DNA of 64,000 nucleotides, taken from an uncultured Anaerolineaceae bacterium (lineage in GTDB: Bacteria; Chloroflexota; Anaerolineae; Anaerolineales; UBA4823). Where the stretch lies: the NCBI GenBank assembly GCA_964606085.1, contig CAZSFD010000005.1:19812-83811 (forward strand), written 5' to 3'. Position 1 is the first letter of the stretch; the number at the start of each line of letters is the position of its first letter. Shown here piece by piece: positions 3,111 to 22,602 of this stretch. The notes below the pieces were generated by a model. The model was not told where the DNA came from. It was given only the letters and a program-made list of their open reading frames with translations, and made no database searches. Position numbers and translations under genes: made by a program.

Positions 3111-3166
3111 TCTGCGCTGGCCGGGTTGTGCGATTGTGTTTCAATAGCTTTTCAAATTGATCCTGC

Positions 3167-3290: not shown

Positions 3291-5672
3291 ATGAACCGAA
3301 AATTTTTAAGCCCCTACGGATATTTTTCGGATGATGGCAAAGAATATGTGATCACCACGCCTCTGACACCCAGGCCGTGGGGCAATATCCTCAGCAATGG
3401 CGATTACGCCCTGATGGTTTCGCAGACTGGGTCGGGGTACAGTTGGCGGGGAAACGCCGGGCAGAACCGCATCACGCGGTCTTTTCAAGATTTGATTAAA
3501 GACAATTGGGGGAAGTATGTTTACATCCGCGATCTGCAACGGAAGACTTTCTGGTCAGCTGCGTACAAGCCGGTGATGCGCCCCTGGCAGGATTTTGCCG
3601 TCGTTCACGGCGTTGGCTACTCCCGTTTTCGGCAGCGCATCGAAGACATTGCCAGTGAGTTGACCGTCTTTGTCGTCGCGGCTGACCCGGTGGAGGTCTT
3701 TCAACTGCGCTTGACCAATCACAGCGACGAGGTGCGCCACCTGGATGTCACCTCGTATGCCGAGTGGCTGTTGGGGTTCGCGCCCGATGAGCATCGCGAA
3801 TTTCATAAGCTGTTCATTGAGACATCGGCAAACGTGGCGCACTGCGCCGTTATGGCCCGCAAGTGTCTGTGGGGTTTCGCCGACGATAAGGGCCGCCACA
3901 ACAATGTGGATTGGCCCTACACCGCGTTCATGGCGGTCAGCGAGCCGTTGAAATCGTACGACTGCGACAAAGAAACGTTCCTCGGCCTGTATCGCAACGA
4001 TGACCGGCCGCGGGCGATGGACGAAACAACCCTGGCCGGGCGCACCGGGCGCTTCACCGATGCCATCGCCGCGCTGCAGGTGGCTGTGACGTTAGCGCCG
4101 GGCGAGTCGAAAATGGTGGTGTTTACGCTAGGGGCCGCCGAAGATGGCAAGGAGGATGCCGCCGAACTGATCCGCCGCTATACCACGGTCGAGGCCAGCG
4201 AACGGGCGTTTGATGGGGTGCGGGCTTTCTGGTCGCGTTTCATTGACGGCGAAAAGGTGGAAACGCCCGATGAAGCGTTCAACTTTATGACCAATACCTG
4301 GCTGAAATATCAGGCCATTTCGTGCCGCTTGTGGGGGAAATCGGCGTTGTACCAGGTTTCGGCGGGCTATGGTTTTCGCGACCAGTTGCAAGACAGCCAG
4401 ATTTTCTTGGTCGGCGAACCGGAATATGCCAAAAAGCAGTTGCTTCTGCACGCCGCGCAGCAATTTATCGAGGGTGATGTGCTGCACTGGTGGTTTTCCA
4501 TGCGCGGCGGCGGGCCGCGCACCAACTGCTCAGACGATTTGCTGTGGCTGCCGTTTATTCTGGATGCCTACCTGAAAGAAACCGGTGACTTTGCCATTTT
4601 GGATGAAGCGATCCCTTACCTGAACGGCCCGGCGGAGAGCCTTTACCGGCATTGCCAACGCGCCATCGAACGTTCGTTCACCCGCTTTTCGCCGCGCGGC
4701 GTGCCGTTGATGGGCGACCACGATTGGAACGATGGCCTGAGCGCGGTGGGGACGCTGCTCAAAGGCGAGAGCTTTTGGGTGGCCGAGTTTCTGTATATGA
4801 TTTTGGGCAATTTCGCCCCGCTCGCCCGGCAGCGCGGCGATGAGATTTTTGCCGGCAAGTGTGAAATTGTTCGCCAGAGCGTGAAAGATGCCCTCAACCG
4901 CCACGGCTGGGATGGCGAGTGGTATTTGCAAGCCACCACCGATGACGGTTTATTGCTCGGCTCGAAGGACAACGCCGAAGGCAAGATATTCCTGATGCCC
5001 AACATTTGGGCGGTGATCAGCGGGGCAGCAGAGGGTGAGCGCGGCCAACAGGCGCTGGCGGCGGTGACGAAATACCTGCTCAAAGACCACGGCACGCTGC
5101 TCAATTACCCTGCCTTTACGCAACCCCGGCCCGATGTCGGCTACGTCACCCGCTATGCGCCGGGCTTGCGCGAAAACGGCGGCGTGTACACCCACGCGGC
5201 CACCTGGTCGGTGTGGGCGTACGCGCTTGCCAACCAGCCCGAACGGGCCTACGAAGCCTACCGCAAAATCTGTCCGCCCAACCGCAGCGCGGATATAGAT
5301 ACCTACAAAGCCGAACCTTATGTCACCCCCGGCAATGTGGATGGCCCACTCTCCGAGTATTATGGCCGCGGCGGGTGGACGTGGTACACCGGCTCGGCAC
5401 AATGGCTGCACCGCGTGGCCACGCATTGGATATTGGGCATTCGCCCGCAAGCAGATGGCTTGCTGGTGTCGCCGTCGATCCCGTCAGAATGGCATGGATT
5501 TACCGTCTCGCGCCGATTCCGCGGGGCGTGGTATCAGATCACGGTCAAAAATCCTGATCATGTCAACAAAGGCGTCAAAAGCGTGATCGTTGATGGGCAA
5601 AGCCTGGCAGGGAATGTGGTTCCCATCTTCGCAGATGGGCAAACACACACGGTTGAAATTCTCTTGGGCTGA
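3291..5672 (+). CDS. GH94 glycoside phosphorylase
   Basis: PRPWGNILSNG N-terminus, GYGFRDQLQD, SDDLLWL, DWNDGL (catalytic Asp), RENGGVYTHAA, WTWYTGSA; no signal peptide; likely start 3291. Confidence 0.92.
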   Translation: MNRKFLSPYGYFSDDGKEYVITTPLTPRPWGNILSNGDYALMVSQTGSGYSWRGNAGQNRITRSFQDLIKDNWGKYVYIRDLQRKTFWSAAYKPVMRPWQDFAVVHGVGYSRFRQRIEDIASELTVFVVAADPVEVFQLRLTNHSDEVRHLDVTSYAEWLLGFAPDEHREFHKLFIETSANVAHCAVMARKCLWGFADDKGRHNNVDWPYTAFMAVSEPLKSYDCDKETFLGLYRNDDRPRAMDETTLAGRTGRFTDAIAALQVAVTLAPGESKMVVFTLGAAEDGKEDAAELIRRYTTVEASERAFDGVRAFWSRFIDGEKVETPDEAFNFMTNTWLKYQAISCRLWGKSALYQVSAGYGFRDQLQDSQIFLVGEPEYAKKQLLLHAAQQFIEGDVLHWWFSMRGGGPRTNCSDDLLWLPFILDAYLKETGDFAILDEAIPYLNGPAESLYRHCQRAIERSFTRFSPRGVPLMGDHDWNDGLSAVGTLLKGESFWVAEFLYMILGNFAPLARQRGDEIFAGKCEIVRQSVKDALNRHGWDGEWYLQATTDDGLLLGSKDNAEGKIFLMPNIWAVISGAAEGERGQQALAAVTKYLLKDHGTLLNYPAFTQPRPDVGYVTRYAPGLRENGGVYTHAATWSVWAYALANQPERAYEAYRKICPPNRSADIDTYKAEPYVTPGNVDGPLSEYYGRGGWTWYTGSAQWLHRVATHWILGIRPQADGLLVSPSIPSEWHGFTVSRRFRGAWYQITVKNPDHVNKGVKSVIVDGQSLAGNVVPIFADGQTHTVEILLG

Positions 5673-5880
5673 AAACACCCGGCGATGCCCTGGGCAACGA
5701 TACAACACCAGCAGTCAGGAGGTGCGCAGCTTCCAAAACCAAACGAAAACATTCCCACTCGTTCCGAACCAACTCAGAGAGCCTAACCCGCGAACTCCTT
5801 GCACAAAAACAAGAATTTCCTGGATTAGTGCGCTGGTCGTTCCGCTTTATGCGGGTTAGGAGATACAAGGAGTAAAACTT

Positions 5881-7299
5881 ATGAAAACCGTTTCGAAATT
5901 GCTCACCCTGTTGATCGCAGCCACCCTGCTTGTCAGTATCGTTGGCTGCACCGCGGCGCAACCGACCGCCACCCTGACGCCCGAACCCACGGCTGTGCCG
6001 GCCACTGCCATACCGCCCACCGATACCCCCGAACCACAGCCTGTCACCATCCGCTATGCCGCCCATAACCTGGGCACCGAAGAGGAAAATAACGCCGAGC
6101 GCCAGTTGATCGCCGCTTACATGGCGCTGCACCCCAACGTGACGATTGAGATCGTGGATATGAGCGCTGAAGGCGGTTGGGAAGCCAACCTGACCGCTTA
6201 CGCTGCCAAGGGCGAGTTCCCAGATGTCTTTTCGGCCTTCGACCTGCCGTTGTATATCAAAAATGATTGGCTGGCAGATGTCGGCCCGGTAGCCAGTGCA
6301 GACCCCGACTGGCAGAAAATTCCCCAGGCGCTGCGCGATTCGGTGGCCTTCAATGGCGTTTCGTATGGCGTGCCGTCGGGACAGTTCATCGTGGGCTATG
6401 TGGTCAACAAAGACCTGTATGAAGCCGCCAACCTGGACGCCCCAGAATATGGCTTTAGCCTGGAAGATTACGAAGCCGCCATGATGGGCCTGAACAACCC
6501 CGCGGATGGCGTGCTTGGCCTGGATGAAGTATGGAATATCCCCGGCTGGCTGCCCAATTCGATTGACCCCAAACTCAAATGGTTCAGCTTCGACGGCGCC
6601 AACATGAATTACAACTCGGCTGCCTTCAAAGAGGCCATTGCCAAGATGGCGCAGTATGGCCCGTATGCCTGGGACGGCCTGAGCGATGAGCAGAAGACGA
6701 ACTTCAAATCGGCTGGTCCGTGGGAACTCTTCCTCAACCAGGAAGTGGGGATGCGCTTCTCGTATGGCTGGGAACTGCCCGGCCTGATCCAGAACGCCAC
6801 CTTCAATTGGGACTTCGTCGGCACCCCGGGCGGCAATCAGGCGCTGGTGTTCGACTTCATCGGCATCGGCAAGACCACCCAGAACCTGCAGGAGGCCTAC
6901 AATTTCGCCAAGTGGATGGCTTTCTCGCCCGATGGGTATGCCAAGCGTGTTGAGATCGCCAAGACGATGAACTCCGTCCCCAATATGCCGGTGGCGGTGG
7001 ATGATGCCACGCTGGCCTTGTACACATCTTTCTACCCGAACCAGCCTGGCCTGGCGGCGGCGATGAAAAACCTGGATAACAGCCTGATCGAGTCGGTGCA
7101 GAAGGCTGTCCCCGGTTTTGTGAATGCCCGTTGGGAAGGCAAAACCGGCATTGTGATCGATGGCGCAGAAGTTGAGCGCATTGATTTCTTCTGGAGCTAT
7201 GGCAACTTCTCGAAGTTCAAGTTTGAAGATTACTCTGCCCAGCTCGAAGAATTCGCCAATAAGATTCTGGCCGAGGCCCGAGCCGGGATTACGAAGTAG
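5881..7299 (+). CDS. Sugar ABC transporter substrate-binding lipoprotein
   Basis: Lipobox IVGC, Pro/Thr linker, SBP family 1-like features; AAGGAG RBS. Confidence 0.9.
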   Translation: MKTVSKLLTLLIAATLLVSIVGCTAAQPTATLTPEPTAVPATAIPPTDTPEPQPVTIRYAAHNLGTEEENNAERQLIAAYMALHPNVTIEIVDMSAEGGWEANLTAYAAKGEFPDVFSAFDLPLYIKNDWLADVGPVASADPDWQKIPQALRDSVAFNGVSYGVPSGQFIVGYVVNKDLYEAANLDAPEYGFSLEDYEAAMMGLNNPADGVLGLDEVWNIPGWLPNSIDPKLKWFSFDGANMNYNSAAFKEAIAKMAQYGPYAWDGLSDEQKTNFKSAGPWELFLNQEVGMRFSYGWELPGLIQNATFNWDFVGTPGGNQALVFDFIGIGKTTQNLQEAYNFAKWMAFSPDGYAKRVEIAKTMNSVPNMPVAVDDATLALYTSFYPNQPGLAAAMKNLDNSLIESVQKAVPGFVNARWEGKTGIVIDGAEVERIDFFWSYGNFSKFKFEDYSAQLEEFANKILAEARAGITK

Positions 7300-7301
7300 T
7301 T

Positions 7302-7349: not shown

Positions 7350-7377
7350 GCCCGTGGTTGCTAAAAAAAAGGTGTCT

Positions 7378-10260
7378 ATGTCGAAGAAGATGCCCCGCTT
7401 TTTCAGGCTGCTGGCTGCGCTATTGATCTTGCTGGTGATCAGCGCCCCCCTGGTGCGCCCTGCGCCGGCGTTGGGCCATCCCTTGCCGGTTCAACGCGCT
7501 GTGCAGGCTGGCGGCGGCATCGAGGTAAGGGCAGATGCGTTTGGCTTACCCGCCGCCGATGACCCGCTGGCGGCGGCGTATGCCAAACCGAGCGTTTTTC
7601 TGCAAGCCGGCGAACCGCTGCATTTCACGGCCGACATTCCGGCAGATGGCCTCTACACCGTGTCTTTCGATATGGCCGCCGGGCAGTCTTTCATCAACGG
7701 GCCAGAGGGTCAGCTTCTCGTGGATGGGTCTTTTCCGATCAGTGAGACGCGCCGGATCATTTTTCCCATCTTTTATCAAAACGCCAGCGACCAATTCCCT
7801 TTGGATCGGTACGGCAACCAGGCGTTGATCCGTCAGGAACGGCTTTTGCGCTGGTCGAAGGTGGCCTTGCGCGATGCCAAATTCAGCCTGCCTTATCCGG
7901 CGCAAATCCCGCTGACGGCGGGGACGCATTCGTTTACTTTCATGCTTACCCAGGAGACCATGCTGCTGGGCAGTGTATACATCGAGCCATTTTCAGCTTA
8001 TCCGGCGTATGAGCGGTACGCGCAGGCTCACCCTGACCGCGCTTCTTCGGGGGTGTTGATCGAGCTTGAAGCCGAGTTTCCGACGTACAAGAACGACACC
8101 GCCATCCGGCCCACTGCTGTGCGCAGCCTGGAGGCATCGCCCTACGACGCCTACACGTTGATGCTGAATACCCTCGGCGGTGAGGGCTGGAAGCGCAGCG
8201 GCAGCGCTGTTTATTACGAGTTTTCGGTGCCGCAAGATGGCCAATATGCGATCAGCCTGCGCTGGCTGCAAAACTTCAAGGAGAACCTGACCATTTTTCG
8301 CCGCATCACGGTGGATGATGCCGTGCTGTTCGACGAACTCAACGCCGTGCCTTTTCCCTATTCCACGCGCTGGGCCACCAGCACCCTGGGCGGCGATACG
8401 CCTTTCAAAATTTACCTGACCCAGGGCAGGCATGTACTGGGGATCGAGGCCAGCAATTCTCCGTACAACCCGGCGCTTACCAAAATCCAGAAGGTGCTGC
8501 TCGACATCAACCGCTTGTCGCTGGAAATCCGCAAGCTGACCGGCAACCAGGCCGACCCGTTCAAGGAATGGGTGCTGTCTGATTACATTCCCGATATTGA
8601 GGCGCGGCTCACGGCGATTGCCGATGACTTGCAAAGCGATATGACTGGCCTGGTGGCGATTAACCAGGCCAACCGCTCGCAGGAAATCTTGATGTACCAG
8701 ATGGCGATTGACAACCTGCGCTACCTGGCCGATGAACCGGACAAAATTCCCGTTCGCATGAACCGCTTCTCCACGGGGGCTGGCTCGGCGGCGGAATTGC
8801 TGGGGAAAATTTTGCCGTCGCTTCAGGAGCAGCCCCTGGCGTTGGATAAAATTTACATCCATTCGCCCGATACGCCTCCGCCGGCGGTGCGTGTGTCGTG
8901 GTGGGCCAGCCTGGCCGATGGCCTGCGGCGTTTCGTCCATTCTTTCCGGCAGGACCCTTACAATTCCATTGGGGCGCAGGAAGGCGAAATTGAAGTGTGG
9001 GTCAACCGGCCACGCCAGTACGTAGATTTGATGCAATTCCTGACCGATCAGACCTTTACCCCCGATACTGGCATCTCGGTCAAGTTTTCGATCATGCCCA
9101 ATGAGTCTAAGCTGGTGCTGGCCAAGGCGGCGGGCATCGAACCAGATGTGGCGCTTGGCATCAGCACCAACATCCCCTACGAACTGGCCGTGCGCAACGC
9201 GTTGAAAGACCTGCGTACGTTCGAGGATTTCGACTCGTTCATCAACATTTACACCCCTGGTTCTTTGCTGAGCTATGTTTTGAACGATTCGGTGTATGCC
9301 ATCCCAGAGACGCAAGATTTTTGGGTCACGTTTTACCGCCAAGACATCTTGCAATCGTTGGGTATTCCGGTGCCGCACACCTACGATGAAGTGATCGAGA
9401 TTTTGCCAGAATTGCAGCGCTATGGGATGAACTACAACACCCCCCTTTCTGGCGGCGCTGGCCTGAAAGGGTATTTGGTGACGGCCCCCTATCTGTTCAA
9501 TTACAATGCCGAACTGTATCGCCCTGATGGCTTCGCTTCTGGCCTGGATAGCGATGCGGCGATCAACGCCCTCAAGTTCATGGCGGAGAGTTTTACCGTT
9601 TATGGTATGCCGCTGACCACTTCCAGCTTTTATGACAGCTTTCGCTACGGCAGCCTGCCTATCGGGGTATCCAACTTTACCGATTATCTCAAGCTGCTCA
9701 CCGCTGCGCCGGAGTTGACCGGGTTGTGGGCGATTGACCTCTACCCGGCCACGGTTCTGCCTGATGGCAGCCAAAACCGCTGGGCCACGGGTTCGGCGCA
9801 GGCATGTATCATGTTCGCAGATACCGAGCAGCCTGAAAAATCCTGGCAGTTTTTGAAATGGTGGATGTCTACGGAGACGCAGGTGGAATTTCAGCAGCAG
9901 CTTGTGTTGAATTATGGCATGGAATACTTGTGGAATTCGGCGAATGTCGCAGCCTTCAGCTATATTCCCATTCCCCAGGAACACAAAGACATTATTCTGG
10001 AGCAATGGAAGTGGCTGCAAGAGCCGGTGAGACTGCCCGGCAGCTACATGCAGGAACGCGAGTTGAGCAACGCCTGGAATAAGATCGTCTTCGATGGGGT
10101 CAACCCACGCGTGGCCCTCGATGACGCCATCCTGGTGATCAACCGCGAAATTGCCCGCAAGATGGAGGAATTTGGCTACCTGGAGAATGGCGTGCCGGTC
10201 AAGGCGTTCAAAGTGCCCACCCTCGAGACGGTGAAGGGCTGGATGGAGCAGGGCCAATGA
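7378..10260 (+). CDS. Giant (about 960 aa) extracellular solute-binding protein: N-terminal beta-rich CBM-like region plus C-terminal SBP domain
   Basis: Sec-type signal peptide; C-terminal half has SBP family 1 motifs ([24 protein letters not shown]); likely start 7378. Confidence 0.85.
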
Positions 10261-11204
10261 CCGCCGCGCGCAGCAGTACGGTTCTGGCAACTCGTGGCGT
10301 TCCCAGCGCAGCCCGCAAGTGGATCGATCAGGAGGGCAATGCCTACGCTTTCCTATCCATGTATGCGGCGATGTTCATTATTTTCATCGTGCTGCCTGTG
10401 GTGGTGGCTATTCTGCTGTCGTTTACCTTTTTTGACACGATCCAGCCGCCCACCTTCAATGGCATGAAGAATTACATCACCCTGCTGACCCAGGATGACA
10501 TCTTCATGCGCTATGTCATCCCCAACACGGTCCAGTTTGCCGTGATTGTGGGGCCGGGTGGCTATATTTTGTCTTTCCTGCTGGCCTGGATGCTGGCCCA
10601 ACTTCCCAAGCTGCCGCGTACCCTCTTCGCTTTGATCCTGTATTCGCCCTCGATGACGGGTGGCGTGGCAATGTCGGTGGTGTGGCTGACCATTTTTAGC
10701 GGCGACCAGAACGGCTATCTCAACAGCTTGCTGCTCAGCTATGGCGCGATCCAGGAGCCGATCCAATGGTTGCAGTCGCCGCAATACCTGATGACGATGA
10801 TGATTGTGGTGACGCTGTGGAGCAGCATGGGGGTGGGCTTTTTGGCGATGCTGGCGGGGATTTTGGAGATCAACCCGGAACTGTATGAGGCCGGGGCGCT
10901 GGATGGCATTCGCAACCGCTTCCAGGAAATCATCCACATCACCATCCCCTCGATGAAGCCGCAGATGTTGTTTGGGGCGGTGATGGCGATTGTGTCCACC
11001 TTTCAGGCGGGAGCCATCGGTGTCACGCTTTCGGGAGCCAACCCCACGCCGCAGTATGCCGGGCAGTTGATCGTCAACCACATCGAAGATTTCGGCTTCA
11101 TCCGCTACGAGATGGGCTATGCCGCGGCGGCTTCGGTGGTGCTGCTGCTGATGGTGTTGTTCTTCGCGCGTGTGGCAAACCGTCTGTTTGGCAGCCCGGA
11201 GTAG
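10257..11204 (+). CDS. Carbohydrate ABC permease (MalF-like)
   Basis: EAA loop [10 protein letters not shown]; TM helices; ATGA overlap with upstream gene. Confidence 0.92.
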
Positions 11205-11212
11205 GAGGCCGT

Positions 11213-14127: not shown

Positions 14128-16360
14128 GCTGCATATCCTCCTCTTTGTGACCTTGTTTGGACTGCTGGGCGGGGCAGGCGTGGCAAGGGTGGCCGGCGGC
14201 GCACCTGAGGCGCTGCCCCTCGCCCCCGCCGAAGCGGTTGTTCAGCCGCGTGCGCTCGAAATGAAAGGCGCCGCCGCGACCGAGGTGGCGACGGATGTGT
14301 TGGTCGGCGAAAATGCCAAATTCCAACTGTATGCCAATGCCGAAACCCTGGCCTTCAAAGTGGTGGATCGGCGCAGCGGTTATGTGTGGCATTCCAACCT
14401 GGACGAGAAAATGCCCAGCGACCGCCTTAACAAGACCTGGACAGCTTTTGCCACGAGCGGGATCAGCATTGATTTTGTCGATCAAAAGGTCAACGAAAAA
14501 CGCGCCTCCATCACCAGCGCCGAGCACACCATCGAGTTCCAGCAAACGGGCCAGGGCTTCCTGGCGCATCTGACCTTTAGCGAACCTTCCATCTCGTTGA
14601 GCGTCAGCGTCCAACTCAACGAGCGCGGCGTGTCCGTCGAAATCCCCTTTGCTTCCCTGCATGAAGCAGACCCGGCCTACCGGCTGGGCACGCTGCACGT
14701 CTACCCCTTCTTTGCCGCCACCCGCGTAGACGATGTCCCCGGCTATCTGTTCATCCCCGATGGTTCTGGCAGCCTGATCCACTTTGCGGCTGAAACAAAA
14801 GCCAAAAATATGTTTTATGGACGCTATTATGGCGCTGACCTGGGAATGCTGGGTTCCCTGCCGTATGACCCCACGACCCAGCCGCCGCATAAAATTTCCA
14901 TCCCGGTGATCGGGATGGTGCATGGCGAGGGCGAAAATGCCTATCTGGCCATTGTCGAGCAGGGCGCCTCGTATGGCGAATTTCGCGCCCACCCGGCCGG
15001 CATCATCACCAATTTCAATTTTCTTTACAACGCCTTCACCTACAACGCCAGCTATTTCCAGGCCACCAGCCGTTCGGGGGCGGGGGTGACTGTCTTGCAG
15101 CCCAGCACCAACCCGTTTGATGTCAAGATCAACTACCGCTTCCTCACCGGCGGCCAGGCCGATTACGTGGGCATGGCTCGCAGTTACCGCGATTACCTGA
15201 TTGAGCAGGACGAATTGAGCCGCACCGTAACGCCTGGCAGTGACATCGGCATCCGCCTGGAGTTTCTGGCTGGTGATAAGGAGCGTGTGCTGTTTTGGGA
15301 TCGCATGATCCCCATGACTACCATCTCGCAAATGCGGGCCATTCTCGACGATTTGCAGGTCAAAAACCCGCAGGTGGTCTACTATGGCTGGCAGCCCGAT
15401 GGCGCATCCAGTATGCCGCCGAAGACCTTCAAGCTGGATGGCAGCCTGGGGACGCCGGGCGAACTGGCCGCCCTGATCGGCGATGTTCAGGCGACTGGCG
15501 GCCAATTCAATCTGTATGTAGACCCTCAGGCGGCTTTTTGGGATGAGCCAGGCTATTCCACCCGTTCCGACCTGGCTGTGGCTATCATCAACGAAAATAT
15601 CATTGGTTACAACCGCGATAAGGTCAATTTTTTCCGCAACTTCGCCTCGTTGAGCCAGTTCTACACCTCGCTCAACCAGGATGTGTGGCGCGCGGTGGGG
15701 GCGGGCCTGGCCCTGGATGGCATCGGGACGAACCTGTACAGCGATTTCAAGGATGGCAATTTCATCAGCCGTGAACAAGCCATTCAGCAATACCGGGCGC
15801 TGCTGGCCGCCGATGGCAGCGACAACCTGGTGGCGCTTCGCAGCGCTTTTTACCGGCCCAACCACTATCTCTTTCGCTACATGCAGGCTTACTACGACAT
15901 CCCGGTGACCGACAGCGGGTATATCTATACCACTGCTACCGTGCCATTTTTACAGATTGTCTTTGCCGGTATGATCCCGTTCTATGGCCCGGCGCTGAAT
16001 TTTTCTTCCAACCTCCAGGAAGATTTGCTCCGTTATGCCGATTTTGGCGTTTATCCGTCGTTCTTCGTCTCTGAAGGCGCGACCGCCCGCATCCTGAACA
16101 CCCGCTCCAACTGGATTTTTTCCTCGGCATACACCCAATGGGGCGATGAAATCAAGCGCACCTATCAATGGCTCAATGACCGGTTGGGGCCGGTGTATGG
16201 GCAGGAGATCATCGCCCGCCAGCAGCTTGCGCCAGGCGTGTATGCCACCACCTATGCCAACGGGAAGGTCGTCATCGTCAATTACACCGCGCAGCCAGCT
16301 GCCCTGGACGGCGTGACGGTCAATGGCAAAGATGCCGTCCTCAGCGAGGTGCAGCCATGA
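14120..16360 (+). CDS. DUF5696-like secreted protein
   Basis: N-terminal signal or anchor; [12 protein letters not shown] and [15 protein letters not shown] segments I recognise from DUF5696; conserved position between the NHL/YIP1 gene and permeases. Confidence 0.7.
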
Positions 16361-17247
16361 GAAGCCGGCCTTCCTTCGGCATCATTCGCATGAAGCACAG
16401 CTTGCGCGAGGCGCTCTATGGCTACGCCTTCGTGCTGATCTGGATCATCGGCTTTGGCCTGTTTACGGCCATCCCCCTCGTGCAGACCTTTCTGTTCAGC
16501 CTGAACCAGGTCACGGTGAAGGCCACCGGCATTGACCAGGTTTTTGTGCGTTGGGATAACTACACACGGGCGTTGTTTACCGATACCAGCTTTATCGAAC
16601 TGCTGATCGAGTATGTGATCGAAACCCTGGTCTCTGTGCCGATTGTGATCATCTTTTCGATGATCATCGCCTTGCTGTTGAATTTGAATTTCCGGTTGAA
16701 GGGCGTGTTTCGCACGATCTTCTTTTTGCCAGTGGTGATTACCAGCGGGCCGGTCATTCGCGAGCTGACCGCCCAGGGCGCTACCTCCGTTCCTGGCTTG
16801 CAAAACCTGACCGCCGTGGCGAACTTCGTCGCCGAATTGCCGCGCTATTTGCGCAACCCGGTCGAATACCTGCTGACCTCGTTTATTTTGATCCTGTGGT
16901 TTTCTGGCGTGCAAATTCTCATCTATCTCGCCAGTCTGCAGAAGATTGACCGCAGCATTTACGAAGCGGCGGCCATTGATGGCGCATCGGCCTGGGAAGC
17001 GTTCTGGAAGATTACGCTGCCATCGCTCTCAACCACCACCGTGATCATCGCCTTTTACACCATCATCACGCTGTCGCATTTTTCCGAGAACAAAGTCATC
17101 CGCTACATTTACGGGCAAACCTATTCAGTAGATGGCGGGTTTGGTTATGCCAGCGCCATGTCATTCATCTATTTTCTCGTGTTGGTGCTGCTGCTGGTGA
17201 TTGTCTATTTCGCCTTGAATTTCCAATCCCGCAAGACGTTCGATTAA
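16357..17247 (+). CDS. Carbohydrate ABC permease (second MalF-like)
   Basis: EAA loop SIYEAAAIDGAS; ATGA overlap. Confidence 0.92.
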   Translation: MRSRPSFGIIRMKHSLREALYGYAFVLIWIIGFGLFTAIPLVQTFLFSLNQVTVKATGIDQVFVRWDNYTRALFTDTSFIELLIEYVIETLVSVPIVIIFSMIIALLLNLNFRLKGVFRTIFFLPVVITSGPVIRELTAQGATSVPGLQNLTAVANFVAELPRYLRNPVEYLLTSFILILWFSGVQILIYLASLQKIDRSIYEAAAIDGASAWEAFWKITLPSLSTTTVIIAFYTIITLSHFSENKVIRYIYGQTYSVDGGFGYASAMSFIYFLVLVLLLVIVYFALNFQSRKTFD

Positions 17248-17257
17248 CAGGGCGCTT

Positions 17258-18187
17258 ATGCACAGGTTCTCCAAAGATTATCTGCTCGGTTTCTTTTTTG
17301 GCAACCGCACCGGGTACGGGTTGGTTTTCACCACCTTGCTGTATGCCCTGCTGGCGGCGATCGGGTTTGTTTACCTGTACCCGCTGCTGTTCATGTTCGT
17401 CACCAGTTTCAAGAACACCAGCGACCTGCTCAACCCGGCAGTGCAGTGGATTCCGACCGAGTTTTACACGGGCAACTATGTGAAGGCCTACCGGGTGCTG
17501 GATTACCCCCAAACGCTGCTGGCTTCGACGATGATCAGCGTCATCCCGTCCATCATCCAGACGGCCGTGTGTTCGCTGGTGGGCTACGGCCTGGCGCGTT
17601 ACCGTTTTTGGGGCAAAAATGTGATCTTTGCCTGCATCCTGGCGACCTTTATCATCCCCGCTCAGAACACCTTCATCCCGCAGATGTTGACCTTCCGCGA
17701 CCTGGGCTTGTTGGGGAATATCCAGGCATTGCTCATCCCGGCCATCTTCGGCCAGGGGTTCAAGAGCGCCATCTTCATCCTGATCTTTTACCAGACCTTC
17801 CTTTCGCTGCCCAAAGTGCTGGAGGAAGCCGCCCGGCTGGATGGCGCCACCGACCTGCAAATTTTCATCCAAATTGCCATCCCCGCCGCCCTGCCATCTT
17901 ATATCATCTCGGTCATCTTCTCCACGGTCTGGTATTGGAATGAGACCTTCCTGACCAACATCTTCCTCGAAGGCGGCATCCAAACCCTGCCGATGCAGCT
18001 CGCCCGGTTTGTGCAGGCGTACGAAAACCTGTATCCGCCTGGCGTGGTGAACATTTTCGACCGCATCAACGAAGCCGTCAAGTTGAGCGGCACCTTTTTG
18101 AACATCTTGCCGCTGCTCGTGATGTACTTCATTCTGCAAAAATGGTTCGTCGAATCGATTGAAAGGACAGGCATTACCGGTGAATAA
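17258..18187 (+). CDS. Carbohydrate ABC permease (second MalG-like)
   Basis: EAA loop LEEAARLDGA; C-terminal FVESIERTGITG. Confidence 0.92.
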   Translation: MHRFSKDYLLGFFFGNRTGYGLVFTTLLYALLAAIGFVYLYPLLFMFVTSFKNTSDLLNPAVQWIPTEFYTGNYVKAYRVLDYPQTLLASTMISVIPSIIQTAVCSLVGYGLARYRFWGKNVIFACILATFIIPAQNTFIPQMLTFRDLGLLGNIQALLIPAIFGQGFKSAIFILIFYQTFLSLPKVLEEAARLDGATDLQIFIQIAIPAALPSYIISVIFSTVWYWNETFLTNIFLEGGIQTLPMQLARFVQAYENLYPPGVVNIFDRINEAVKLSGTFLNILPLLVMYFILQKWFVESIERTGITGE

Positions 18188-19541
18188 ACCCATCCTCTTG
18201 CTGTTGAGCATTCTCCTGCTGATTTCCGGTTGCACCACGCCAACCCCCACTTCCATGCCCCCCACCTCCACCCCTTCGCACACGCCAACGGCTGTCCAGC
18301 CGCCCCCCACCGAAACGCCCCTCCCCACGCCAACCCCGGCGAATATCGCCGATGTTATCGCATACGAAATGAAAGGTTCGTTCGATTTTTTCTGGGAGCA
18401 GGCCAACACCGACGCGGCCAGCCCTGGCTACGGCCTGGTGCGCGACCGCTATCCGGGGTCAGAAGGCATCGCCAGCATGGCTTCGGTTGGCTTCGCGCTC
18501 ACCGCTTACCCCATTGGCGTGGAAAAGGGCTATATCACCTGGCAGGAAGGTTACGACCGGGCCAACGGCACGCTGGATACCCTGCTGCGCATGGATCGCG
18601 TCGAAGGTTTTTACTACCACTTCGTCGAGATGCAAACCGGCCAGCGCGCCTGGCAGAGCGAGGTCTCTAATATTGACACCTCCATCCTGCTGATGGGCGT
18701 TCTCACGGCGGGGGAATACTTCGGTGGGGAGGTGCAAGCCAAAGCGCAGCAAATTTACGAGGGGGTCAATTGGCCCTGGTTTCTCGATAGCGCAAGGAAT
18801 ATGTTTTACATGGCCTATCGCCCCGAAAAAGGCTTCGAGGGCCACTGGGATTTTTACGCCGAGCAGTTGATGATGTATGTGCTGGCCGCCGGTTCCGTTA
18901 CATACCCGCTCGATGATCTGCCCTATTACACCTTCACCCGCCACACCGCCCACTATGGCGCGGGGCAGCCGTTCATCCATTCGTGGTTTGGTTCCATCTT
19001 CACCTACCAATTCAGCCACGCCTGGATTGATTTCCGCGGCCTGACCGACAAGAAAGATGTCAACTGGTTCGACAATTCGGTCTCGGCGGTGCAGGCGCAC
19101 TACGATTACGCCGTCAAGATGGCGCCCAAGTATAAAACGCTCGGCCCCCTGGCCTGGGGTCTCTCTGCTTGCGACGGGCCGGATGGCTATAACGGGCTGT
19201 ATGGCGCGCCGCCTTCAGGATACGACAACAAGCAGCACAAGGTAGATGACACCATTCCGCCCTATGGCGCCATCGGTTCGATCATCTTCCTGCCTGAGCA
19301 GGCCCAACAGGCCATGTTGAACTATTATGCGCTCGAAAAGCTCAAAGGCCGCTACGGCTTTCAGGATGCCTACAACTTGAGCGAGAACTGGTACGCCCCC
19401 GATGTGATCGGCATTGACAAGGGCATTTCGCTGTTGATGTTGGCGAATTTCGAGAACGAGCAGGTACACCAGATTGTGATGAAAAACGCCCACATCCTCA
19501 ATGGCTTGAGCCGCTTGCAGATCTTGGAGCAGACGCCATGA
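18180..19541 (+). CDS. GH144-like (Glycoamylase/DUF3131-type) putative endo-beta-1,2-glucanase lipoprotein
   Basis: Lipobox ISGC plus Pro/Thr linker; SMASVGFAL, GFYYHF, EVSNIDT, YAEQLMMYVLA, FTYQFSHAW, WGLSACDGP, GIDKG motifs; likely GTG start at 18180. Confidence 0.8.
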   Translation: MNKPILLLLSILLLISGCTTPTPTSMPPTSTPSHTPTAVQPPPTETPLPTPTPANIADVIAYEMKGSFDFFWEQANTDAASPGYGLVRDRYPGSEGIASMASVGFALTAYPIGVEKGYITWQEGYDRANGTLDTLLRMDRVEGFYYHFVEMQTGQRAWQSEVSNIDTSILLMGVLTAGEYFGGEVQAKAQQIYEGVNWPWFLDSARNMFYMAYRPEKGFEGHWDFYAEQLMMYVLAAGSVTYPLDDLPYYTFTRHTAHYGAGQPFIHSWFGSIFTYQFSHAWIDFRGLTDKKDVNWFDNSVSAVQAHYDYAVKMAPKYKTLGPLAWGLSACDGPDGYNGLYGAPPSGYDNKQHKVDDTIPPYGAIGSIIFLPEQAQQAMLNYYALEKLKGRYGFQDAYNLSENWYAPDVIGIDKGISLLMLANFENEQVHQIVMKNAHILNGLSRLQILEQTP

Positions 19542-20515
19542 CCACGATCAAAGACGTTGCCAAACACGCCGGGGTCAGCGTCACCACGGCTTCATACGCC
19601 TTGAACGATACCGGCTCGATCAGCGCCGCCACGCGCCAACGCGTGTTCGAAGCCGCCGAAGCGCTCAATTACCACCCCAACGCCTTCGCCCGCAATCTCA
19701 AAAAGCGCAAATCGGGCGTTATTGGCGTTTTCATCAATCGCTTTGGCGGCTCGTTCTACGAGGACATTCTCGAAGGCATCCACGATGCCGTTCTCACCAC
19801 CGATTACGACCTGATCGTCTGCCCCGAAACCGGGGTCATCCCCCGGCTGCTTACCCAGCGCCAGGTGGATGGGGCCATTGTGTTTGCCTCGCGAATTAAG
19901 AATGACACGCTGGTCAAGGTTGCCTCGAAAAAATTCCCCATCGTCGTCCTCGACCGTTTCCTCGAAACAGACTATTTGTTCCCATTGCTGCTCGACAACC
20001 AGCAGGGCGTGAAGGCGGCTTTTCGGCACCTCTATGAGCAAGGCGCACGGCGGATTTTTTATATTTCTGGCGCAGCCGATTCCTTCGATAACTGGGAGCG
20101 CAAACGGGCCTTTCTCGATGAAGCCGCCAAATATAACCTCGCCACCCAGCAATACGACGGCAACTTCACCGAAAAATCGGGCTACGACATTGGCAGCCAG
20201 ATCATCCAGGGCGGCAGCTTGCCCGAAGCGGTGTTTTGCGCCAACGACCAGATGGCTATCGGCTTCCTGCGCGCCATGCAAGAGCGCCAACTGAATGCGC
20301 CGCGCGATATTGCCGTGGTCGGTTTCGATGACATTCAGGTCGCCAGTTTGATGCACCCTTCCCTGTCCACCGTTGGCGCTTCGCGCTACACCTGGGGCTA
20401 TTCTGCGGCCAACCAATTGATGGACTTTCTCGAAAACGGCAACCCCTTCCCGCAACCCTATCGCATCCAGACGCAACTGATCCCGCGTCAATCCTCCACC
20501 CGAGTCGCCCGATGA
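19538..20515 (+). CDS. LacI-family transcriptional regulator
   Basis: TIKDVAKHAGVSVTTASYALN HTH; YHPNAFARNL hinge; CANDQMAIG, VVGFDDI. Confidence 0.95.
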   Translation: MTTIKDVAKHAGVSVTTASYALNDTGSISAATRQRVFEAAEALNYHPNAFARNLKKRKSGVIGVFINRFGGSFYEDILEGIHDAVLTTDYDLIVCPETGVIPRLLTQRQVDGAIVFASRIKNDTLVKVASKKFPIVVLDRFLETDYLFPLLLDNQQGVKAAFRHLYEQGARRIFYISGAADSFDNWERKRAFLDEAAKYNLATQQYDGNFTEKSGYDIGSQIIQGGSLPEAVFCANDQMAIGFLRAMQERQLNAPRDIAVVGFDDIQVASLMHPSLSTVGASRYTWGYSAANQLMDFLENGNPFPQPYRIQTQLIPRQSSTRVAR

Positions 20516-22602
20516 ACACCTTCGCCGTCCGAGACGGCCAATTCTGGCTCAACGACCAACCCCTGCTCCTCCAGTCTGGCGAATTGCACTATTTTCGCAC
20601 CCCGCCAGCGCAATGGCCGCACCGCCTGGGGCTGCTGCAGGCGGCAGGCTTCAACGCCGTAGCCACGTACATCCCCTGGCTGTGGCACCAGCCTGAGCCT
20701 GGCGTTTCCGACTTCGACGGCCACAGCCACCCGTGGCGTAACCTGGCCGGTTTCCTCGATCTCGCCGCCGAGATGGGCCTGTGGATCATCGCCCGGCTTG
20801 GCCCTTACATCATGGCCGAGACCATCAACGAGGGTATTCCGCCGTGGGTGTTTGCCCAGGCCCCACAGGTTGCCATCCTCAACCAGCACGGCCAAACGGA
20901 AAACATCGCCAGCTATTTACACCCCGATTTTTTGACCCCCGTCGCACACTGGTACCAGGCAGTTTTTCAGGTATTAGCCCCCCGGCAGATCACCCGCGGC
21001 GGCAATATCCTCCTGATTCAACTGGATAACGAAATGGGTATGCCCCATTGGGTGCGCAATCTGCTCGACATCAATCCCGATACCCTGGCGCGCTTTGCCG
21101 CCTATTTGCATGAGACGTATGCCGACCGGCTTGCCCGGCGCTACCCCGCCGCCGATCTGCCGGAATTTCTCGGCCAGGCGTTAGCGCATCCCGGCGCACC
21201 CCACGCCCGCAACGTGCTGGAAGATTACCGCCGCTTTTACCGCGCCTATCTCCGTCAATATGCCGCTTTCTTGTGGTCGCAGGCGCAGGCCAACGGCATG
21301 GAAGTTCCGCCCATCGTCAACATCCACGGCTTTGCCAACGGCGGCAAAACCTTCCCCATCGGGTTGTCGCAGTTGGTCTCGGTGATGGAGATGGACGGGA
21401 TGGTCAGCGCCACCGATGTCTACCCCATTTTCATCAACGAGGGCAATTTTCACCAACTGCTGCTGGTCAACGAAGCCACCAAAGCGCTGCAAAACCCGCA
21501 ACAGGCGTTGTTCTCGGTCGAGTTTCAGGCTGGCGGCAACCTCGATTTTGGCAGCGGCCAGACCTCGCTTTACGATCTGCACGCCCGGCTGTGTATTTCG
21601 TGTGGGATGCGCGCCATCAATCATTACCTCTTCTTCGATGGCGAAAACCACCCCCTGCTCAGCCCGGTCAAACGTCACGATTGGGGCCACCCGGTGCGCA
21701 AAGACGGCTCTCTGCGCCCGCATTACCACCGCTACCCCAGGCTCTCGGCGGCGCTTGCCACCTATGGCAGTGCCTTGACCCTGGCCCGCCCGCAAACCGT
21801 CACGACGATTGGCTTTTGGCTCGATCATTTTATGACCGAAGTCAACAACGCCTTCACCCAGGAAGCGACCCACATCATCACCCACCAACGCGAAGTGATC
21901 CTGTTCGACCTGATCGCCCGCGGCCTGGCGCTCACCCACCGCCCCTTCGATGCCGTCGAACTCAGCCGCGCCACGCTGGATGCCGCCACAACGCCGCTCT
22001 GCTGGGCCATGCTCGAAAGGCAGTGCGACCCCGCCACGCAGCAAAAATTGGTAGAGTACGTCCGCCAGGGGGGAAATTTGGTTCTGATTGGGCGGATGTG
22101 CCTGGAAGGCTTCGATCACGCCCCATGCACCCTCTTGTCCGAGGCCCTCGGTGTCGTCCGGCTGGGCGGCGGCGAACCGTTCGTATCACGGCTGATCCGT
22201 GTTTTCGACCATGCTGATGTCCCCGCCTCGTTCGTCGAAACCTACGTGGGCGATTTCGCTGAAGTGATCGCCAGCGACGAAACCGGCGCAACGGTGGGTT
22301 TCATCCAACCTGTCGGCAAAGGAAAGGTGCTGCTCCTCGGCGCGGCGCTGCCGGCCAACACCCTGGCCGACCTCGGCATCGTCCACCAGATGGCCTTGCA
22401 GATGGGCTGCCCGCCGCTCTTTCGGCTCAGTCAATGGGCTGATGTGCGCATCAGCCGCGGCGAAAGGGGCAGTTTCCTGTTCATCAACAACTATCAAGAT
22501 GATGCGGTTGAAACGACGGTGGAATATGATGGCCAAATGCTTTTTGCAGGACAGGCCATCACGCTGCCCGCTCGACAAGGGTTGATCTTGCCTGTGGAAT
22601 GA
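20512..22602 (+). CDS. GH35 clan-A glycosidase/transglycosylase with GH42-like C-terminal domain
   Basis: GELHYFR, GPYIMAE, QLDNE (acid/base, E174), SVEFQAG (nucleophile, E337); no signal peptide. Confidence 0.82.
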   Translation: MNTFAVRDGQFWLNDQPLLLQSGELHYFRTPPAQWPHRLGLLQAAGFNAVATYIPWLWHQPEPGVSDFDGHSHPWRNLAGFLDLAAEMGLWIIARLGPYIMAETINEGIPPWVFAQAPQVAILNQHGQTENIASYLHPDFLTPVAHWYQAVFQVLAPRQITRGGNILLIQLDNEMGMPHWVRNLLDINPDTLARFAAYLHETYADRLARRYPAADLPEFLGQALAHPGAPHARNVLEDYRRFYRAYLRQYAAFLWSQAQANGMEVPPIVNIHGFANGGKTFPIGLSQLVSVMEMDGMVSATDVYPIFINEGNFHQLLLVNEATKALQNPQQALFSVEFQAGGNLDFGSGQTSLYDLHARLCISCGMRAINHYLFFDGENHPLLSPVKRHDWGHPVRKDGSLRPHYHRYPRLSAALATYGSALTLARPQTVTTIGFWLDHFMTEVNNAFTQEATHIITHQREVILFDLIARGLALTHRPFDAVELSRATLDAATTPLCWAMLERQCDPATQQKLVEYVRQGGNLVLIGRMCLEGFDHAPCTLLSEALGVVRLGGGEPFVSRLIRVFDHADVPASFVETYVGDFAEVIASDETGATVGFIQPVGKGKVLLLGAALPANTLADLGIVHQMALQMGCPPLFRLSQWADVRISRGERGSFLFINNYQDDAVETTVEYDGQMLFAGQAITLPARQGLILPVE

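Follow-up and report, generated by a model that had tools for sequence, protein, structure and literature searches.

The locus at 3,291–22,602 of the window (the whole 64-kb stretch of DNA analyzed here) raises the question of which glycan is served by a gene set that brings GH94, GH144 and GH35 enzymes together with sugar-uptake components. The original prediction was β-1,2-glucan utilization, and our analysis supports this reading: the GH144 protein lies in the SGL clan, the GH35 is IaSGT-like, the trio occurs as in Ignavibacterium album and the linkage is conserved; from these data we infer β-1,2-glucan as the substrate. Judged from sequence, the locus is probably an operon under LacI control that serves to capture and import β-1,2-glucan or β-1,2-gluco-oligosaccharides (Sopn) and to break them down in the cytoplasm. 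It most likely harvests β-1,2-glucans produced by other bacteria; the cyclic glucans of Proteobacteria, named in the original prediction, may be the specific substrate. The Chloroflexota origin of the DNA, which is of Anaerolineae type, is likewise supported. No published activity was found in the literature for its enzymes or for any Chloroflexi ortholog.

Operon Organization and Regulation

The predicted boundaries match the GH94 start and the GH35 stop exactly, and Pfam supports the predicted content. The 12 genes lie on the forward strand (~19 kb) and encode the GH94, two binding proteins, four ABC permeases, an NHL-TPR-Yip1 membrane protein, a DUF5696 protein, the GH144 lipoprotein, a LacI protein and the GH35. 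That nearly all genes overlap by 1–8 nt was somewhat overstated: seven of the 11 junctions do so and the remaining four are gapped (8 and 10 nt in two of them, 208 nt from GH94 to SBP1 and 78 nt from SBP1 to the big SBP). No convincing internal terminator was found in the operon, the matches being at shuffle level, and the gene 3′ of it is convergent. A candidate sigma-70-like promoter was read from the sequence at 3,167–3,195 on the forward strand (TTGACA at 3,167–3,172, a 17-nt spacer, TAATTT at 3,190–3,195), with an overlapping alternative at 3,157–3,184 in the promoter scan; it is a consensus match only, promoter-like matches in the region being at shuffle level.

The LacI-family repressor is located at 19,538–20,515 (+) and contains the Pfam LacI HTH and Peripla_BP_3 domains; no NCBIfam equivalog scored above its cut-off for this protein. 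A perfect 16-nt palindrome at 3,206–3,221, AGTGAAACGTTTCACT, 70 nt 5′ of the GH94 start, is a candidate LacI-type operator, and the exact sequence TGAAACGTTTCA occurs in the 64-kb window only at this palindrome. GTGTAACGTTTCAC is present at the equivalent place in Chloroflexi loci L004 and L005, while TTGAAACGTTTCAA is found 5′ of LacI, SBP1 and GH144/GH35 in Bacillaceae loci, with 26 matches in 1.64 Mb and a chance expectation of about 1.6 (our own estimate). The putative operator is kept in both position and sequence across loci. Control by a LacI repressor is a typical feature of catabolic operons, which argues against the idea that the enzymes remodel or recycle the cell's own β-1,2-glucan (an osmoprotectant or envelope glucan) and not a foreign one. 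Biosynthetic Cgs does contain GH94 and GH144-like domains, and conservation of the GH94 across Anaerolineae is unusually high (about 80%); against this, the permeases belong to an importer type that depends on binding proteins and come with two SBPs, and the window revealed neither a GT84/Cgs nor an OpgH-like synthase. Such recycling seems hardly probable at all.

Carbohydrate-Active Enzymes

The GH144 lipoprotein at 18,180–19,541 (+), with a GTG start and the lipobox LISGC, is a predicted extracellular endo-β-1,2-glucanase (Pfam PF10091 'Glycoamylase', the GH144 family, E-value = 3.7e-58). Whether this protein falls within the SGL clan had been set beforehand as a point that could refute the prediction; it does, as a GH144 with the clan residues kept, and its best solved relative is XcSGL/XCC2207 (E-value = 2.4e-60), with CpSGL at 1.6e-35. 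XcSGL is specific for β-1,2-glucan (PMC12102758). The acid Glu of GH144, the clan Phe and the base-candidate Asp are all present, and D166, E228, F274 and Y337 (numbered from the 18,180 start) are invariant or near-invariant across 64 homologs. The protein shares its family and its catalytic and clan residues with XcSGL and CpSGL and differs from them as a lipoprotein with a Pro/Thr-rich linker, at modest identity. A second, cytoplasmic GH144, present in most relatives, is absent from the window, which counts against the β-1,2-glucan reading.

The GH35 at 20,512–22,602 (+) belongs to the clade of IaSGT, a β-1,2-glucosyltransferase (PDB 7vkw, E-value = 5.2e-60, residues 11–664). The signal originally read from a GH35 next to GH144 was borne out, as the likeness to IaSGT runs over the full length and, of the seven residues that form the donor site (−1 subsite) or act in catalysis, every one is kept; Y53, E103, N173, E174, N270, E337 and Y372 do not vary across 40 cassette-linked homologs, N173 occupying a position that is Asp in glucosaminidases. 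Full equivalence to IaSGT had to be corrected: the key acceptor-site (+1 subsite) arginine R349 is replaced by N343 (N or E in relatives), and therefore the +1 site differs from that of IaSGT, a further point against the β-1,2-glucan reading. According to Kobayashi et al., such +1 differences may alter specificity (PMC8861115). The replacement would also suit a substrate other than polymeric or cyclic β-1,2-glucan: either small β-1,2-glucosides (sophorosides, or natural products that are glycosylated or sophorolipid-like) or a heteroglycan whose side chains contain β-1,2-Glc, with GH35 transferring or hydrolyzing glucosides. IaSGT accepts many aryl- and alkyl-glucosides (PMC8861115) and natural Sopn are reported mainly as sophorosides (PMC12369401), but every characterized GH144 acts on chains of β-1,2-glucan or Sopn, and the GH144 of this operon keeps the clan residues that bind subsites −3 and +2.

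The GH94 glycoside phosphorylase at 3,291–5,672 (+) is a 793-aa protein with the Pfam catalytic domain (E-value = 1.6e-116) and one N-terminal supersandwich domain. The anticipated RDQLQD variant is present at residues 363–368 (GFRDQLQD from 361). The same motif is found in the GH94 domain of Agrobacterium tumefaciens Cgs, whereas cellobiose phosphorylases have RDSNQD; DWNDG and RENGGxYTHAATW are likewise common to this protein and the β-1,2-specific Cgs phosphorylase domain, and the cellobiose phosphorylase insertion after DWND is missing. Among solved structures the Cgs domain (Cgs-GP) scores 459 bits and cellobiose phosphorylase 474 bits over the full length, so the protein is about equally close to both, which is itself a point against β-1,2-glucan; scored over its whole chain, Cgs reaches 521 bits, the best by that measure. 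Cgs-GP differs in its two supersandwich subdomains and its Rossmann-like insert and belongs to a synthase of 2800 aa, whereas the window GH94 is a free protein with the cellobiose phosphorylase layout. An SOGP-type assignment was rejected, as the second N-terminal domain of SOGP and Cgs-GP is missing; LpSOGP was not among the PDB matches at 1e-5. More than 100 homologs have 78–84% identity, all from Chloroflexi, and JGI annotates many orthologs as 'cellobiose phosphorylase'. This label, the full-length match and the single N-terminal domain would fit a cellodextrin or other β-glucan (β-1,3 or β-1,4) system, with GH94 as cellobiose phosphorylase. We consider that very unlikely, given the Cgs-type motifs, the GH144 and IaSGT-type GH35 partners and the lack of any cellulase, laminarinase, GH1 or GH3 in the locus or the rest of the 64-kb window.

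Uptake Cassette

The original prediction spoke of an importer; import genes are indeed present, but they belong to an eight-gene colinear cassette with accessory parts, the most unusual portion of the locus, which had been missed. The order of these eight of the 12 genes is the same across four or more bacterial phyla; no description of the cassette was found in the literature. SBP1 at 5,881–7,299 (+) is a lipoprotein solute-binding protein (Pfam SBP_bac_1; lipobox IVGC; PDB 22hh-22hl, E-value = 1.5e-172) and is probably the partner of the second permease pair; in distant cassettes the small SBP is located 3′ of permB2. The 960-aa big SBP at 7,378–10,260 (+) comprises a signal/anchor, CBM35-like module(s), a helical linker and a C-terminal SBP domain (Pfam SBP_bac_8, residues 584–865 of the longer ORF). 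Its N-terminal 541 aa had no Pfam match, while their profile matches the CBM35 modules 5x7g (E-value = 1.3e-7), 2vzp and 2w1w; the SBP domain finds its top PDB match in Lin1841, which binds Sopn in Listeria innocua (E-value = 6e-10). The permeases A1 (10,257–11,204), A2 (11,213–12,118), B1 (16,357–17,247) and B2 (17,258–18,187), all on the forward strand with Pfam BPD_transp_1, make up two MalF/MalG-type pairs, and identity is 58–73% between Chloroflexi and Firmicutes for A1 and 50–69% across phyla for A2. No ATPase gene lies within the locus, which counts against the β-1,2-glucan reading.

Invariably between permA2 and DUF5696 is the gene (12,118–14,127, +) of a membrane protein with a signal peptide, an NHL β-propeller, TPR and a C-terminal multi-pass Yip1 domain (Pfam NHL, TPR_2, Yip1); both proteins are fixed accessory parts of the cassette. 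DUF5696 itself (14,120–16,360, +; Pfam E-value = 4.6e-165) is a 746-aa protein with an N-terminal signal/anchor. Its AF2 model (pLDDT 87.5, pTM 0.89) predicts a GH129-like three-domain fold; Foldseek matched ZgGH129 (7e-32, TM 0.63/0.71), NagBb (1e-25), GH101 (1e-17) and GH36/GH31 (about 1e-13), all retaining α-glycosidases, and the profile matched GH129 among PDB sequences (1.2e-6). With GH129 (ZgGH129, a 3,6-anhydro-D-galactosidase; NagBb, an α-N-acetylgalactosaminidase) and GH101 it shares the order β-sandwich, (β/α)8-like barrel, β-sandwich, but identity is 12–14%, the residue that faces the GH129 nucleophile in the alignment is non-acidic across the family, and DUF5696 is membrane-anchored within a transporter cassette. 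An α-glycosidase fold is not required for pure β-1,2-glucan, which counts against that reading. It would suit the small glucosides or decorated heteroglycan considered above, from which DUF5696 would strip non-glucose (α-linked) decoration; DUF5696 is, however, a generic cassette part not particular to these enzymes, and the surface endo-enzyme and the CBM35-SBP fusion indicate a polymer. We regard such substrates as unlikely.

Distribution and Synteny

GH144, LacI and GH35 stand beside the cassette in 16 of 16 testable Chloroflexi loci, including rearranged gene orders, and GH94 was found in every Chloroflexi locus whose flank extends far enough. In L004 and L005 the linkage is kept despite a rearranged, divergent layout. 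The cassette is also found, colinear, in Bacillaceae, Paenibacillus, Clostridia, Mycoplasmatota and Thermosipho, where it often adjoins other GH families; Bacillaceae, Paenibacillaceae and Mycoplasmatota cassettes also occur with GH144, GH35 and/or GH94. Because the linkage is conserved across genomes and phyla, chance adjacency is excluded. The cassette itself is not substrate-specific, another point against the β-1,2-glucan reading, and represents a general platform which other bacteria pair with other glycosidases.

Proposed Pathway

For β-1,2-glucan, the CBM35-SBP fusion would retain the polymer at the cell surface, where GH144 would cleave it endolytically to Sopn. The two binding proteins would pass the oligosaccharides to the two permease pairs, energized by a shared ATPase encoded elsewhere. 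In the cytoplasm, GH94 phosphorolysis would yield glucose 1-phosphate, and the IaSGT-like GH35 would transfer or hydrolyze the non-reducing glucose of short Sopn (e.g., 2 Sop2 to Sop3 + Glc); together they could complete the breakdown without a β-glucosidase, of which the window has none. Short Sopn would probably lift LacI repression. The predicted localization signals, a lipobox on GH144 and no signal peptide on GH94 or GH35, fit the division into a surface endoglucanase and cytoplasmic phosphorolysis that was originally proposed.

Comparison with Known Systems

Like Gram-positive polysaccharide utilization loci (gpPULs) with ABC importers, the operon groups a regulator, an SBP, permeases and GHs. 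A fixed order of two permease pairs, a CBM35-SBP fusion, an NHL-Yip1 membrane protein and DUF5696 is, to our knowledge, not part of any gpPUL described so far, and none of these elements is mentioned in a review on glycoside transporters from 2026. The clusters lin1838-1841 of L. innocua and SGR_2422-2427 of Streptomyces griseus also belong to monoderm hosts, which import Sopn via an SBP-dependent ABC transporter and degrade them in the cytoplasm, Lin1841 being most like the domain of our big SBP; they differ in having SOGP (about 1080 aa, two N-domains), a GH3 or GH1 β-glucosidase, one SBP and one permease pair, and the S. griseus glucanase is GH193, not GH144 (Abe et al., 2018; PMC12369401). 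In the SGL cluster of I. album (IALB_1177-1187), IaSGT is the sole characterized member and the pathway was termed speculative by the authors (Kobayashi et al., 2022; PMC8861115). This diderm has a TonB-dependent transporter, a single Lin1841-like SBP and a listed putative GH3, and its cluster is described without DUF5696, the Yip1 protein, the CBM-SBP fusion and the second permease pair; the combination of GH144, GH94, GH35 and an ABC importer is what it shares with the operon presented here (PMC8861115).

Organization of the operon and its surroundings

Gene calling and Pfam searches led to 12 consecutive genes on the plus strand at window positions 3291-22602. The first one encodes a GH94 phosphorylase (3291-5672). 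It is followed by SBP1, a lipoprotein solute-binding protein (SBP, 5881-7299), a big SBP of 960 aa whose SBP domain is the C-terminal third (7378-10260), the ABC permeases permA1 (10257-11204) and permA2 (11213-12118), a membrane protein that combines NHL, TPR and Yip1 domains (12118-14127), a DUF5696 protein (14120-16360) and the ABC permeases permB1 (16357-17247) and permB2 (17258-18187); these eight genes, from SBP1 to permB2, are referred to here as the cassette. A PF10091/GH144 lipoprotein (18180-19541), a LacI regulator (19538-20515) and a GH35 enzyme (20512-22602) complete the operon. The original prediction that nearly all genes overlap by 1-8 nt was slightly generous, since such overlaps occur at 7 of the 11 junctions, while two are gaps of 8-10 nt and two are longer (208 nt 3' of GH94 and 78 nt 3' of SBP1). 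A promoter candidate (TTGACA-17-TAATTT) is located upstream of GH94, 5' of a palindrome at 3206-3221, and the gene 3' of the operon is convergent. Apart from this, the gene train is as it was first described. Promoter and terminator scans gave matches at the level of shuffled sequence and do not set the transcript ends, and in NCBIfam none of the key operon proteins matched above cut-off.

The operon contig is also present in the JGI metagenome 3300037501. Hundreds of homologs (57-84% identity) were found for the GH94 and DUF5696 proteins, and every named one comes from Chloroflexi (Anaerolineales, Anaerolineaceae, Ardenticatenaceae, Bellilinea and Promineifilaceae MAGs), which supports the earlier description of the genome as Chloroflexota-like. 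Upstream of the operon, the plus strand also encodes an M23 peptidase to which LysM matches weakly (within 4-3110) and a PfkB-family sugar kinase (1084-2013). The kinase gene shares 4 nt with the next one (2010-3110), whose product is a 366-aa multi-pass membrane protein that Pfam did not match. In a related locus (L021), a homolog of PfkB (35%) lies between the second GH144 and GH35, so the kinase of the window is possibly linked to the glucan pathway. On the other side, an MFS transporter, a mannitol-dehydrogenase-family protein and a PIG-L deacetylase-family protein (22644-26099, minus strand) converge on the operon. The remaining window carries families of the housekeeping type (SDRs, class II aldolases, OTCase, DAHP synthase, S41 peptidase, ABC exporter).

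Enzymes of the operon

The GH144 lipoprotein belongs to its family both by Pfam (PF10091, E-value = 3.7e-58) and by similarity to characterized members. Among PDB entries it best matches XcSGL (XCC2207, 2.4e-60), an endo-beta-1,2-glucanase (SGL), and CpSGL (1.6e-35) and the Bacteroides GH144 structures (BDI_3064, 1.8e-32) rank after it as solved relatives. XcSGL hydrolyses beta-1,2-glucan and no other glucan tested, and the SGL clan is defined by its residues E239, F286 and Y367; the position of CpSGL E142 holds a base candidate (PMC12102758). The general acid (XcSGL E239, CpSGL E211) and the clan Phe (XcSGL F286) are kept as E235 and F281 when numbered from the ORF at 18159, or E228 and F274 from the start at 18180; the Glu is invariant in 64 cassette-linked homologs and the Phe is present in 63 of them. 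The base candidate D173 (D166 from 18180) stands in the motif IDTS, which aligns with VDTA in XcSGL and VETA in Bacteroides, and this Asp is likewise invariant in the 64 homologs. The subsite -3 Tyr (XcSGL Y367) falls inside an insertion that faces a gap in the pairwise alignment, and its equivalent is likely the invariant Tyr of a DGY motif (Y337 from 18180). The protein encoded at 18180 is thus placed inside the SGL clan, whereas a place outside it would have counted against the original prediction, and beta-1,2-glucan is its predicted hydrolysis target. From its lipobox (LISGC) and its Pro/Thr linker, it should be located on the cell surface. The operon might also be read as serving the turnover of an endogenous glucan, and we regard this as highly improbable beside the two SBPs and their importer-type permeases. 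Most Chloroflexi relatives (compared at loci L006, L008, L010, L013 and L053) have a second, signal-less GH144 paralog of ~410 aa between LacI and GH35, 35-38% identical to the lipoprotein. None was found at the corresponding junction (20512-20515) or elsewhere in the 64-kb window, and the related locus L018 is also without it.

The GH94 protein (793 aa) carries the catalytic domain (PF17167, 1.6e-116) and a single PF06165 match at residues 27-281 (5.5e-79). The residues of the -1 subsite are kept (R363-D364, W479-N480-D481 with the catalytic Asp, and E628), and H635 would, by alignment, be the phosphate-site His. Motifs of the catalytic centre resemble those of cyclic glucan synthase (Cgs) and not those of cellobiose phosphorylase (CBP): GFRDQLQD, which confirms the RDQLQD variant noted earlier, DWNDG without the CBP insertion, WW..G..RT..SDD and RENGGxYTHAATW. 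The RDSNQD motif and the loop insertion after DWND, which mark the CBP type, are replaced by RDQLQD and an uninterrupted loop. A system for cellodextrins or another beta-glucan, in which this enzyme would be a true cellobiose phosphorylase, finds some footing in the architecture, as one supersandwich domain in 793 aa is the layout of disaccharide phosphorylases and CBP, and in the scores, since CBP matches over the full length with 470-474 bits while the main domain of Cgs reaches 459 bits and the whole Cgs score is raised by a further match, to its extra N-terminal subdomain. Set against the Cgs-type catalytic centre, we hold such a system to be improbable.

[quoted passage not shown] In SOGP homologs and Cgs-GP the N-terminal part comprises two supersandwich domains, the first of which (Ndom1, ~250 extra residues in SOGP) shapes the pocket. 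The window GH94 has one such domain, and its PDB matches at E ≤ 1e-5 include CBP, ChBP, CBAP, CDP and LBP but no LpSOGP chain; the SOGP assignment was rejected on both counts. Cgs-type motifs, the disaccharide-phosphorylase layout and the missing LpSOGP match thus mark it, on sequence grounds, as a separate GH94 lineage, a placement made from pairwise HMMER scores and motifs. The genomic context argues for action on a beta-1,2 substrate, a putative linkage, and the enzyme may prefer Sop2 or longer chains among the beta-1,2-gluco-oligosaccharides (Sopn). The protein is ~80% identical across many Anaerolineae families, far above its neighbours SBP1 (54-62%) and DUF5696 (56-65%), a sign of either strong constraint or a recent spread. 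A literature search for 'sophorose phosphorylase' returned nothing relevant.

The best match of the GH35 enzyme is IaSGT, the beta-1,2-glucosyltransferase of Ignavibacterium album, over the full length (residues 11-664, 206.9 bits, E-value = 5.2e-60). The archaeal glucosaminidases GlmA come next with 183.7 bits in two stretches, and galactosidases reach at most 94 bits over the N-terminal 170 residues only; the enzyme is therefore closer to IaSGT than to other characterized GH35 members. The seven catalytic or -1 subsite residues listed for IaSGT (Kobayashi et al., PMC8861115), Y52, E102, N175, E176, N275, E343 and Y378, correspond to Y53, E103, N173, E174, N270, E337 and Y372, and all of them are invariant in 40 cassette-linked homologs. 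The residue before the acid/base is Asn, as opposed to Asp in glucosaminidases, a difference that separates glucose from glucosamine enzymes. Arg349, the key +1 subsite residue of IaSGT, is replaced by N343; its position holds Asn in 23/40 and Glu in 13/40 of the cassette-linked homologs, and many homologs lack the Arg according to the IaSGT paper (PMC8861115). With the -1 residues and the Asn kept and Arg349 replaced, the enzyme very probably belongs to the IaSGT clade and acts on beta-glucosides, and its acceptor or +1 specificity may differ from that of IaSGT.

Conserved linkage and proposed regulation

Related loci were retrieved with DUF5696 as anchor, one genome per species, and the resulting 80 loci were compared by tblastn with all window proteins. 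GH144, LacI and GH35 follow the cassette in all 16 Chloroflexi loci with enough flank, and GH94 (72-84% identical) stands before it in every locus whose flank extends that far. Two other Chloroflexi genomes show a rearrangement in which GH35, GH144 and LacI diverge from the GH94-SBP side, while the gene set stays together. Outside the phylum, Bacillaceae (Fictibacillus, Metabacillus, Neobacillus and others) show the layout GH35 - cassette - GH144 - GH35, Cohnella and Paenibacillus have one or two GH144 with GH35, and MAGs of Mycoplasmatota and Bacillales have GH94 (54-59% identical) - cassette - GH144. The linkage between the beta-1,2 enzymes and the cassette is real; chance adjacency of two systems was rejected because the linkage is kept through rearrangement and across phyla. 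In the Bacillaceae loci (L028-L039, L049-L054) the two GH35 genes lie before SBP1 and after GH144 and there is no GH94, and the second IaSGT-like GH35 seems to replace the phosphorylase. One locus from a Chloroflexia MAG (L077, contig_34434) was retrieved through DUF5696 despite a fragmented match; its DUF5696, big SBP and permB2 each appear as broken tblastn matches below 50% coverage, which may reflect frameshifts in a long-read assembly or pseudogenes.

The LacI regulator has an N-terminal HTH and a periplasmic-binding-protein-like sensor (Pfam). Its candidate operator is the perfect 16-nt palindrome AGTGAAACGTTTCACT at 3206-3221, between the promoter candidate and GH94. In the two rearranged Chloroflexi genomes the site is kept 78 nt upstream of GH94, and its core, TGAAACGTTTCA, recurs in Bacillaceae loci upstream of LacI, SBP1 and GH144/GH35 genes, with 26 matches in 1.64 Mb against ~1.6 expected by our own estimate. 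A different class of operator was seen in Firmicutes loci (L033, L042-L045, L052, L059, L072), where 14-mers of the TGTAATCGTTTACA type, a pattern with cre-type 14-mer spacing, occur ~60-180 nt upstream of SBP1 or LacI.

The uptake cassette and DUF5696

The original prediction spoke of an importer. SBPs and MalF/MalG-type permeases are indeed present, in the form of two SBPs and two permease pairs (Pfam) of a putative type I importer, but they belong to an eight-gene colinear cassette, and no importer ATPase was found in the locus or the window, where the sole ABC_tran match accompanies an exporter-type ABC_membrane domain. Shared ATPases of the MsiK/MsmX type are usual in monoderms. The order SBP1 - big SBP - permA1 - permA2 - NHL/Yip1 - DUF5696 - permB1 - permB2 is colinear in 50/50 testable non-Chloroflexi loci, whose carriers include Clostridia, Oscillospiraceae, Acholeplasmatales, Izemoplasmatales and a Thermosipho MAG, and the cassette occurs in at least four phyla. 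More distant loci have no GH144, GH35 or GH94 and are flanked by GH43, GH16, GH51, GH2, GH31, GH123 and GH3; the cassette is therefore a general platform, for which the beta-1,2 enzymes are one payload.

Before its SBP domain the big SBP has one or more CBM35-like modules and a helical linker, and among solved structures this domain is closest to Lin1841, which binds Sopn in Listeria. SBP1 matches PDB 22hh-22hl (E-value = 1.5e-172, about two-thirds identical by eye), five structures entitled 'Extracellular solute-binding protein family 1'. Literature searches found no paper for these entries and nothing relevant on a Chloroflexi beta-1,2-glucan SBP. In distant cassettes a small SBP follows permB2, which suggests a pairing of the big SBP with pair A and of the small SBP with pair B. 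Pair A (10257-12118) is 50-73% identical between Chloroflexi and Firmicutes, Mycoplasmatota or Thermosipho (L028-L085), as against 28-56% between phyla for the other cassette proteins, a constraint unusually strong for MalF/MalG-type permeases. YknW, a bacterial Yip1-family membrane protein, reportedly belongs to the four components of the ABC transporter YknWXYZ (PMC4887032); by this weak analogy the NHL-Yip1 protein might be a transporter accessory. A search for Yip1, ABC and PUL in combination gave nothing relevant.

DUF5696 comprises 4163 clusters at 50% identity (E ≤ 1e-3) and forms its own Pfam family (PF18952), apart from GH129. A profile search with a diverse DUF5696 alignment yielded Chloroflexi proteins almost exclusively, and an AlphaFold model built from the diverse alignment reached pLDDT 87.5 and pTM 0.89, whereas a shallow Chloroflexi-only alignment gave an unusable pLDDT of 52. 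Foldseek placed GH129 first (7e-32, TM 0.63/0.71 to 5opq), followed by GH101, GH36 and GH31, and the model has the three-domain fold of GH129 with its central barrel. Sequence similarity stays below the family level (12-14% identity, profile E-value = 1.2e-6 over two short stretches), and the nucleophile of ZgGH129 aligns with the non-acidic T537. Near it, at a strand end, D533 is Asp or Glu in 22/23 Chloroflexi, in 24/28 SGL-linked Firmicutes and in only 14/28 other cassettes. D468 and D593 are further candidates for catalytic residues, and D214 and R551 are universally conserved.

The GH129-like fold of DUF5696 leaves some room for a decorated heteroglycan as the true substrate, and the replaced Arg349 of the GH35 for small beta-1,2-glucosides. 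Next to the SGL-clan residues of GH144 and the CBM35-SBP fusion, we consider either substrate unlikely.

Proposed pathway and comparison with known systems

Taken together, the locus is probably a beta-1,2-glucan/Sopn utilization operon, the substrate being assigned from the enzymes and their context. The pathway that we infer, including the order of its steps, the inducer and the roles of the DUF5696 and Yip1 proteins, builds on the domain content, localization signals, fold, conserved linkage and operator observed here. Beta-1,2-glucan would be captured and endo-cleaved at the surface, Sopn would be imported by the two SBP/permease sets, and GH94 phosphorolysis with GH35 transglycosylation or hydrolysis would follow in the cytoplasm, under LacI control through the candidate operator. 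No GH1/GH3 beta-glucosidase was found in the window, and breakdown after import in this organism would depend on GH94 and GH35 alone.

In Proteobacteria, beta-1,2-glucans serve symbiosis, virulence and osmoprotection, and Anaerolineae are abundant in sludge, sediments and digesters. Few beta-1,2-glucan consumers are known to us, and a conserved catabolic operon of Anaerolineae, if true, would be a major sink for these glucans and a cross-feeding link. The ligands in the 22hh-22hl structures would bear directly on the substrate. We also put forward, with considerable doubt, a wider reading in which the cassette serves monoderm-type bacteria of several phyla as a so far undescribed machine for glycan capture and import, functionally Sus-like, DUF5696 founds a new GH129-related glycosidase or glycan-handling family and GH94 has a new specificity, for instance that of the missing sophorose or short-Sopn phosphorylase. 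The GH94 clade may yield a new phosphorylase for the synthesis of sophorose or Sopn. Because the payload glucan is chemically simple and enzymatically well mapped, the locus and its counterparts in cultivable Bacillaceae are a tractable model for cassette function. Literature searches found no paper on DUF5696, the Yip1-type protein or the CBM35-SBP fusion, and a 2026 review of bacterial glycoside transporters makes no mention of the cassette, of these three parts or of the doubled permeases.

To our knowledge, no beta-1,2-glucan locus has previously been known for Chloroflexi. Outlines of such loci already exist for I. album, Listeria, Streptomyces and Bacteroidetes, and the published I. album cluster has the trio of GH144, GH94 and GH35 in common with the window. 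What appears new here is a conserved, multi-phylum cassette with a GH129-fold DUF5696, a Yip1 protein, a CBM35-SBP fusion and doubled permeases, together with the GH94 lineage.
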